From Promethearchaeota archaeon (GTDB lineage Archaea > Asgardarchaeota > Lokiarchaeia > Sigyniarchaeales > SOKP01): a stretch of DNA of 47,783 nt. Of this stretch, positions 13,151 to 14,030 are shown piece after piece. Every line of letters begins with the position of its first letter. The stretch's first letter is position 1. The position numbers and the translations under genes were made by a program. Below the pieces are notes generated by a model, which worked only from the letters and a program-made list of their open reading frames with translations, was not told where the DNA came from and searched no databases. The stretch covers positions 1 to 47,783 of the forward strand of contig JABXKD010000020.1 in assembly GCA_013375475.1 (NCBI GenBank). The letters run 5' to 3'.

Positions 13151-14030
13151 CTATTCCTTAGTTTCTTCATCAAGTTCTTTTTCTGATTCTAAAGAGATTT
13201 CAGAAACGTCTTCTTCTTCGACTTCATCGAACAACATTTTTTCTACCTCAGTTAATTCTCTTTCTTCCTCGGATACTTCGTAATCTTTTTCAAGTTTCGT
13301 TTTAGTTAATTCCGATATCTTTTTTGCTTGAACTTTTGCTAAAGCTTCATCGTTAATTTTAACTGTGTCGCCCATTCTTATATCTGCGTGCATAATCTTA
13401 ACAATAATCCCAAGAGTACCTGATTTTTGAATACATTGAGCTACTCCTCTGTCTACTCCTTCTTGAGCCGGGTGACCCGATTTTTTCATCGTGCCTGCCC
13501 TAAAAACCGTAGTTCGAGCTCGTTGTGAAGTTACTTTGCCAGAGACGATAATTTCTGTTCCTTTCGCACCGGAATCCATTATTTTTCTCAAAATGTAATA
13601 CCCGGCTCTTCTATAATGCCTTCCTCGATCTAACGAATACGCTAAACGCTCAGCCATAATTTGAGCGTTCAAATCGGGGTTTGGCACTTCTTCTACTTCA
13701 ATTTGGGGCATTAGGCTTAAGAGATTCGATATCCCTTAATTTTCCAGCCCAAATCGTTCTTGAAGAATGTCCGTAATCTCTTGAATACGCTTACCGCCTT
13801 TAAGCTAAAATGTCGAAACGACATTTAAATTTACCTATGACGAGTCCCGGTCGGGACGTTCTAAGCGTAATTCTTACTCCGAGTGGGGTTTTTTGTATAT
13901 CAACACCAGCAAACCCTGCCCGTACGAGTTCAGATCTTAGGTATTCGTTGATTTGCATCAACTTGATGCCCTGCTCAATTTCACTTCGCGGGAGTTTTCC
14001 TCTTGCGATAAAGTGTTTAGCGAGTGGCAC
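13151..14030 (-). CDS. rps3: 30S ribosomal protein uS3, four predicted exons: 14030-14010, 13979-13831, 13799-13741, 13710-13151 (262 aa spliced)
   Basis: SD GGTGA (14040-14036) + GTG at 14030; joined exons give MPLAKHF|IEQGIKLMQINEYLRSELVRAGFAGVDIQKTPLGVRITLRTSRPGLVIGK|GGKRIQEITDILQERFGLE|MPQIEVEEVPNPDLNAQIMAERL...; 789 nt continuous frame; expected operon position. Confidence 0.9.
13711..13740 (-). other. Putative BHB-like mRNA intron 3 in rps3 (30 nt, carries an in-frame TAA)
   Basis: ATTAAGGGATATCGAATCTCTTAAGCCTAA; 9-bp stem TTAAGGGAT/ATCTCTTAA, exon pairing GGGC/GCCC; central helix imperfect. Confidence 0.75.
13800..13830 (-). other. Putative BHB/BHL mRNA intron 2 in rps3 (31 nt, frameshifting, inside the KH GxxG loop)
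   Basis: ATTTAAATGTCGTTTCGACATTTTAGCTTAA; stem AAATGTCG/CGACATTT; helix AGGT/GCTT each followed by AAA; removal restores IGKGGKR. Confidence 0.8.
13980..14009 (-). other. Putative canonical BHB mRNA intron 1 in rps3 (30 nt, in frame)
   Basis: ATCGCAAGAGGAAAACTCCCGCGAAGTGAA; outer GCTAAA/TTGAGC, central CACT/AGTG, bulges TTA and AAA, inner TCGC/GCGA + GAG/CTC; absent from the upstream duplicate HFIEQ. Confidence 0.8.

Follow-up and report, generated by a model that had tools for sequence, protein, structure and literature searches.

How the rps3 gene of a Promethearchaeota archaeon can encode ribosomal protein uS3 is not evident from its reading frames, and what a run of 30 in-frame bases does directly after its seventh codon is the question that this locus raises. 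The stretch analysed here (the window, 47,783 nucleotides) is contig C122 of genome G000 (3.9-Mb assembly, 288 contigs, completeness score 100%); it has a G+C content of ~31%, and its relatives are titled Promethearchaeota, an Asgard phylum. Its minus strand carries a ribosomal protein operon in which rps3 is split into a 79-aa frame (13800-14039) containing the KH domain and a 186-aa frame (13151-13711) containing the S3_C domain. The genome holds a single copy of rps3. Genome G014 has a syntenic contig of 96-98% identical DNA in which rps3 directly follows rpl22 without an insert, and comparison with it reveals two further inserts in the window’s gene, of 31 nt (13830-13800) and 30 nt (13740-13711). 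Removing all three at the bulge-helix-bulge (BHB) cut positions leaves an open frame of 262 aa without a stop, whose product matches uS3 of G014 in 256 of 263 positions. Since rps3 is essential, present once, and carries frame-breaking sister inserts, the gene would need splicing in any case. A sequence-only reading had proposed that the first insert is itself a BHB intron. Our analysis makes it very probable that 14009-13980 is a BHB intron in the rps3 pre-mRNA, a reading based on how it folds, on orthologs that lack it, on an untranslatable insert at the same site in relatives, on the co-adaptation of its exons, on the lack of protein constraint, and on the splicing enzymes encoded in the genome. 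Four of 21 runs (X3, X4, X20, and X21) were compared with the window. DNA contigs from two other samples cross intron 1 without differences (X3 record 10, 13646-15778; X4 record 15, 13853-14143), and RNA contigs lie away from the intron junctions, at 13152-13486 only in run X20 and in rpl22 only in run X21.

Table 1. Features of the rps3 region, in window coordinates; introns are predicted
Feature	Position	Strand	Basis
Orphaned native rps3 start, MSPLAKHFIEQ, now fused to the 102-aa frame	16577-16609	-	all 33 nt match the beginning of rps3 in G014
Foreign block upstream of the replacement start	14042-16576	-	absent from syntenic G014
Block frame, part of the 102-aa frame	16301-16576	-	
Block frame, 424 aa	14767-16041	-	
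Block frame, 142 aa	14287-14715	-	
AGGTGA, Shine-Dalgarno-like, for the replacement rps3 start	14036-14041	-	read in sequence
rps3 exon 1, GTG start, MPLAKHF; supplies the outer-helix strand and the central-helix strand CACU (14015-14012)	14010-14030	-	
Intron 1, 30-nt predicted BHB intron, in frame, no stop	13980-14009	-	fold and ortholog comparison
Exon 2 (IEQGIK...VIGK); first ~18 nt pair with exon 1	13831-13979	-	
Intron 2, 31 nt, frame-breaking, relaxed BHB, central helix AGGU/GCUU	13800-13830	-	
Exon 3 (GGKRIQEITDILQERFGLE)	13741-13799	-	
Intron 3, 30 nt, in-frame TAA; central helix UGGA/GCCU (weak), outer helix GGGC/GCCC, 9-bp inner stem	13711-13740	-	
Exon 4, remainder of uS3 including the S3_C domain	13151-13710	-	

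Intron 1 lies directly 3′ of codon 7 on the minus strand, and the RNA around it displays every element of a BHB structure. An outer helix pairs GCUAAA (14021-14016) with UUGAGC (13978-13973) with one A·G mismatch, and a central helix of four base pairs joins CACU of exon 1 to AGUG (13985-13982). On either side of the central helix are bulges of three nucleotides each, UU|A (14011-14009) and AA|A (13981-13979), and an inner stem pairs UCGC (14008-14005) with GCGA (13989-13986) and GAG with CUC. This layout agrees to the base with the one drawn in the sequence-only reading. Minimum-energy folds of 61, 83, and 111 nt of the minus-strand region, the check which that reading had suggested, all recover the central helix, the 5′ bulge, the inner stem, and a long helix between exons 1 and 2. 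Against shuffled sequences the 61-nt fold reaches a z-score of −2.05 (8/200 shuffles equally good), the 83-nt fold −3.35 (0/200), and the 111-nt fold −4.37 (0/200). Two A-U pairs followed by the A·G mismatch beside the 3′ bulge are open in these minimum-energy folds, where the bulge falls within a larger loop. The earlier description “textbook BHB” is therefore slightly generous: the helices, the bulges, and the 4-bp central helix are there, and the outer helix is weak next to the 3′ bulge. The insert thus combines the two bulges and 4-bp helix of a BHB element with flanking helices and a position at the junction of intron-less homologs.

Such a motif is informative because of where it falls and not by its mere occurrence. 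A strict form (four Watson-Crick pairs, an inner stem of at least 4, and 5 of 6 outer pairs) gave 1438 matches in 203,017,672 position-by-length trials across genome G000, a rate of 7.1e-6; 24 matches lie within the window. Strict matches were flat over lengths 20-45 (48-71 per length, against 59 at 30), as were the 29,519 matches of a loose genome scan over lengths 14-70. Because matches of 30 nt are not in excess, such introns cannot be picked out by the motif alone. The chance of meeting a strict motif at the boundaries set by the orthologs, with the ~3 registers that the alignment permits, is ~2e-5. Two strict matches, of 37 and 39 nt, lie inside rps3 exon 4 (13200-13238, minus strand), which is coding according to the orthologs, and are false positives. 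Rfam returned no match in the window, and no tRNA genes were found there.

The same 30 bases could instead be a true coding insertion that adds ten residues after KHF to uS3, with a BHB-like fold that is coincidental. The allele itself is compatible with translation through the insert: it is in frame and free of stops both here and in its one close variant, from metagenome contig L129 (together “type A”), and a read-through rps3 would encode 272 aa without a stop, bearing out the earlier statement that retention adds ten residues. The orthologs point the other way. Excising 14009-13980 restores their KHF|IEQ sequence, and the K(H/I)F-IE junction is uninterrupted in 50/50 loci of genus g1, which represent 35/35 readable genomes (a hand count), and likewise in 35 of 36 genomes from g21, its sister genus, so that the ten residues are lacking in orthologs as the sequence-only reading had expected. 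The single exception, G096, carries a 31-nt “type B” insert at exactly this site, which shifts the frame and contains an in-frame TAA and hence is untranslatable; the ten-residue segment is not kept there either. A pattern scan located type B also in the species-representative genomes L125 and L126 and in metagenome contig L128; the remaining 3 of 5 matches were chance ones outside rps3.

Comparison of these alleles indicates that the RNA structure is kept while the sequence changes. Type B shares with type A the CACU/AGUG central helix and the AAA bulge; its inner stem reads UUAGG/CCUAA instead of UCGC/GCGA and is still paired. The L129 allele differs from that of G000 by three substitutions, all of which lie outside the central helix, bulges, and 4-bp stem; one of them turns an A·C into a G:C pair. 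Folds of four intron-1 alleles all contain the central helix, the inner stem, and the exon-exon helix (z-scores of −3.1 to −4.4); these four represent only two lineages, among which the central helix is invariant. Most simply, the in-frame, stop-free state of intron 1 is an accident of this allele.

The flanking exons are adapted to the fold as well. In the four intron-bearing alleles, which stand for two lineages and not four, the exon-exon duplex has energies of −16.2, −16.2, −15.4, and −14.8 kcal/mol. Among 64 distinct intronless alleles encoding the same residues the mean is −5.5 kcal/mol (sd 1.8) and the best value −9.4, and none of the 64 reaches the energies of the intron-bearing alleles. 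Synonymous exon sites thus seem to be tuned to build the outer helix. Between G000 and L129, the insert has accumulated one synonymous and two non-synonymous changes (R to G and K to E), while exon 2 shows 23 synonymous differences and no non-synonymous one (exact test, 3/325 = 0.009, calculated by hand). By this comparison the insert appears to evolve without protein constraint. A coding insertion would have to accommodate the tuned exon sites, two radical replacements among three insert changes against 0/23 in exon 2, the TAA and shifted frame at the same site in G096, L125, L126, and L128, a fold that meets ortholog-defined boundaries at ~2e-5, and two untranslatable sister inserts in the same gene; we regard it as quite unlikely.

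Those sister inserts, introns 2 and 3, differ in how well their structures are defined. Site 2 is occupied in seven sequences (G000, G132, G099, G127, G101, G118, and L129), among which one central-helix pair is swapped from A:U to U:A; the outer helix of intron 2 is poor, and its fold is no better than shuffles (z-score of −0.78). Site 3 is occupied in nine genomes, where 88% of cells are paired and 8/9 inner-stem pairs have changed on both sides. This covariation score was reached by 0/500 shuffles, and slid controls were 28-64% paired. The central helix of intron 3 is weak, with a conserved A·G mismatch and 63.9% of cells paired. We adopted its register because it fits a covarying pair; an alternative register with the central helix GGCU/AGCC was rejected, as it removes 32 nt, which breaks the frame, and mispairs in G100. 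As a test of the register, two tRNA-Ser introns of G000 place the anticodon stem at the outer-helix positions, with 5/5 pairs each; they have just 2/4 central pairs. ARAGORN called 29 tRNA genes in G000, 14 of them with introns, including two implausible calls with “introns” of 1623 and 552 nt; many tRNA genes of this genome were probably missed owing to non-canonical introns. Outside rps3, no further mini-inserts were found in ~22 kb syntenic with G014, and no other copy of the three inserts was found in genome G000, where only chance words of 11-15 nt recur.

Interruptions of this kind might also mark a decaying pseudogene on foreign DNA with junk inserts, an explanation that could draw on the two frame-breaking inserts and on the foreign origin of the 5′ third of the gene. 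This copy, however, is the sole rps3 of a genome scored 100% complete, and its spliced protein keeps 256/263 residues of G014 uS3 although the DNA of its 5′ third is only ~80% identical. All 23 exon-2 differences from L129 are synonymous, and 6 to 9 genomes retain these inserts with changes that compensate each other. Decay is accordingly a very remote prospect. Programmed translational bypass of the T4 gene 60 type and an intein were also considered and were rejected from the sequence as read: for bypass, a possible ATC take-off in intron 1 is not followed by a stop, and intron 3 lacks a pair of matching codons with which the frame would be restored.

Genome G000 encodes two EndA-family proteins (PF01974, above cut-off; C215 and C133) and one RtcB (PF01139). 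The Asgard EndA is described as an (αβ)2 enzyme whose L1 loop is linked to broad specificity (PMC5829648). In the proposed pathway, exon 1 of the transcript, seven codons long, would build the outer helix by pairing with the initial ~18 bases of exon 2, CACU of exon 1 and AGUG at the 3′ end of the intron would form the 4-bp central helix, and a hairpin within the intron would supply the inner helix, leaving two 3-base bulges. The splicing endonuclease would cut each bulge behind its second base, a rule whose register we checked on tRNA genes. Such cuts in both bulges, followed by RtcB joining the exons, would restore KHF|IEQ, and introns 2 and 3 would be excised likewise to yield the 262-aa uS3. 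Cleavage and ligation themselves are steps that we infer.

Two GTG codons could initiate the frame, at 14030 and 14039, and the former is the more likely start given the AGGTGA element that precedes it. The pattern GGTGA, 5-6 nt, ATG/GTG/TTG, and CCN occurs before rps3 in 8/9 further intron-bearing alleles (G096, G100, G132, G127, G101, G118, L125, and L126, with G099 lacking it). Another copy of the beginning of rps3 lies at 16609-16577, behind the native rpl22 spacer, and differs from exon 1 at synonymous sites. The sequence-only reading had called it a “duplicate rps3 start” and used it as an intron-less control for the KHF|IEQ junction. The control is real, since MSPLAKHFIEQ, including the HFIEQ reported, is read there; the copy is no second gene, and is better described as the ancestral 5′ end of rps3, orphaned by an insertion. 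Together with the upstream region, this native start now heads the 102-aa frame (16301-16609, minus strand), which is a predicted frame.

Between the orphan start (16577) and 13979, 2597 nt are absent from G014. The query is matched by 38 of 41 other g1 genomes, and all 38 alignments begin exactly at the 3′ splice site, none upstream of it. Identity to G014 is ~80% in 13741-13979, 94% over the next 300 nt, and 98-100% further downstream, with 99% at the 3′ end of the gene. The left junction at 16577 is touched only by a DNA contig of X4 (record 21), which has 30 letters to one side of it and so falls short of the 31-letter threshold. From this comparison, a foreign block of ~2.6 kb appears to have brought in the replacement start and intron 1, thereby orphaning the native rps3 start. 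Both co-conversion of the flanking exon and presence or absence of the intron among close relatives are seen here. Contig L129 is a second recombinant, in which the end of the block and introns 1 and 2 are followed by G014-like sequence before site 3.

That the block, relative to G014, ends exactly at the 3′ splice site would also be expected if this site were joined additionally or mainly to the native 5′ exon, at 16586. A 2606-nt intron (16585-13980) would then contain the whole block, and rps3 would stay in the rpl22 operon message. Native CAUU and UU|A could indeed pair with AGUG through one G·U, and the junction would again read KHF|IEQ. By eye, however, the native exon is a poorer partner for exon 2 (two mismatches between GCGAAA and UUGAGC), it would compete with the local mimic and its exon pairing of −16.2 kcal/mol, and the replacement start has a Shine-Dalgarno sequence of its own. 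Judged from these pairings, long-range joining is unlikely, and splicing of the 30-nt intron from the replacement exon remains the preferred reading.

The distribution of the block overlaps incompletely with that of the introns. In the g21 genomes G100 and G132, the DNA upstream of rps3 contains relatives of the 424- and 142-aa frames; the 142-aa frame is found in 0/41 other g1 and 5/54 g21 genomes. Introns in rps3 occur without the block in, for example, G008, G147, G096, G127, G101, and G118. None of the three block frames matched a family in Pfam, PHROGs, or NCBIfam, nor did a 3320-aa relative in G100 or seven other relatives; the PDB sequence search gave nothing for the 424-aa frame, and no relatives, longer ones included, were found for the 102-aa frame. 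An Atlas search returned only weak helix-turn-helix look-alikes (TM <0.3). A pairwise match between the 102-aa frame and residues 434-458 of a G014 protein (E 0.004) is too weak for a name. A homing endonuclease in the block was rejected as a candidate, with no nuclease family detected in the three frames or the eight relatives. The sole nuclease hint is a GIY-YIG match below cut-off (E 0.055) in a G014 protein that is 26% identical to the 424-aa frame.

Several neighboring observations concern the same proteins and the region upstream of rps3. On contig C131 of G014 (L035, 13395-19468), opposite window 20043-20149, a 6-kb insertion sits at the 3′ end of a small membrane-protein gene (window 19757-20125). 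It contains a 1006-aa frame and one of 752 aa, which has zinc-ribbon motifs and matches GIY-YIG below the threshold (E 0.055); the C-terminal half of the latter frame is 25-26% identical to the window’s 424-aa frame. In G100 (contig C8; L080, 3331-13464, minus strand), rps3 is directly preceded by an open frame without a Pfam family; this frame is at least 3320 aa long, and its last ~420 residues are 56% identical to the 424-aa frame. An A/T-rich element (TTTAATAAA.. then AAATTT) lies ~100-150 nt upstream of replacement rps3 starts (window 14180-14130; L038 985-940; L039 935-890; L119 1530-1500) and may represent a promoter that travels with such starts. Genome G099 has a decayed rps3 remnant (L119 1815-1915, minus strand) directly after rpl22; it covers residues ~22-59, is interrupted by a stop and a frameshift, and breaks off at VIGK, where intron 2 has its site, after which come ~400 nt and then a new rps3 start.

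A single route of entry might account for these arrangements. We suggest, as a proposal whose chances we put slightly below even, that mini-introns of Asgard protein genes enter as DNA blocks comprising a replacement 5′ segment and the intron, which would be copied leftwards from the intron site into an intron-less allele, co-converting the downstream exon and orphaning the native 5′ exon; the exons would then carry synonymous codons that build the splice structure. The suggestion draws on two independent orphans, which end 9 nt past site 1 in G000 and at VIGK (site 2) in G099, and on the recombinants G000 and L129, which share a G014-like background and have different right-hand crossover points. 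If true, it would mean that a concrete way of gaining introns can be observed in those archaea that are most closely related to eukaryotes.

Introns in mRNA are rarely reported in archaea, and here three probable ones lie in one essential ribosomal protein gene, so that the translation machinery would depend on tRNA-splicing enzymes. In the literature outside subscription journals and supplementary files, our search met with no BHB intron reported from a protein gene of Asgard archaea, and with archaeal protein-gene introns only in cbf5 of Crenarchaeota. An in-frame intron such as intron 1 can escape gene callers and add spurious residues to predicted proteins, and it is plausible that cryptic in-frame introns exist elsewhere, as the sequence-only reading had supposed. 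The gain of this intron is, moreover, directly traceable, because near-identical strains are polymorphic for it, the native exon survives as an orphan, and the exon flanks have been recoded.

Among described cases, the nearest is the BHB intron in the cbf5 pre-mRNA of Desulfurococcales and Sulfolobales (PMC2738675), reportedly the subject of work by Watanabe in 2002 and Yoshinari in 2006. The rps3 introns resemble it in being short, in lying in a protein gene, in having a BHB-like structure, in being substrates (here predicted) of a tRNA splicing endonuclease, in a host lineage whose EndA has two subunits, and in their presence or absence among related species. They differ from it in gene and host (rps3, encoding uS3, in Asgard archaea), in number (three per gene), in the frame preservation of intron 1, and in the arrival of intron 1 on a foreign block together with a new start for the gene; for cbf5, experiments have demonstrated splicing, whereas that of rps3 is a prediction. 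Introns are also described in Asgard tRNA genes (bioRxiv 10.64898/2026.10.13.758758), and the rps3 introns share with them the presumed enzymes, the motif, and an intron-rich lineage. Unlike tRNA introns, those of rps3 are hosted by an mRNA, in which the outer helix is formed not by a tRNA stem but by coding sequence through synonymous codon choice.

The manner of acquisition invites a third comparison. In collaborative homing, as in cyanophage psbA, an intron without an endonuclease is paired with a free-standing homing endonuclease. The rps3 locus resembles psbA in its presence/absence polymorphism, in the foreign tract that extends into the flanking exon, and in the adjacent foreign block. 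It differs in that no nuclease domain was found in the block, in that its intron is of the BHB type, whereas that of psbA is a group I intron, and in that the native 5′ exon was left orphaned upstream.
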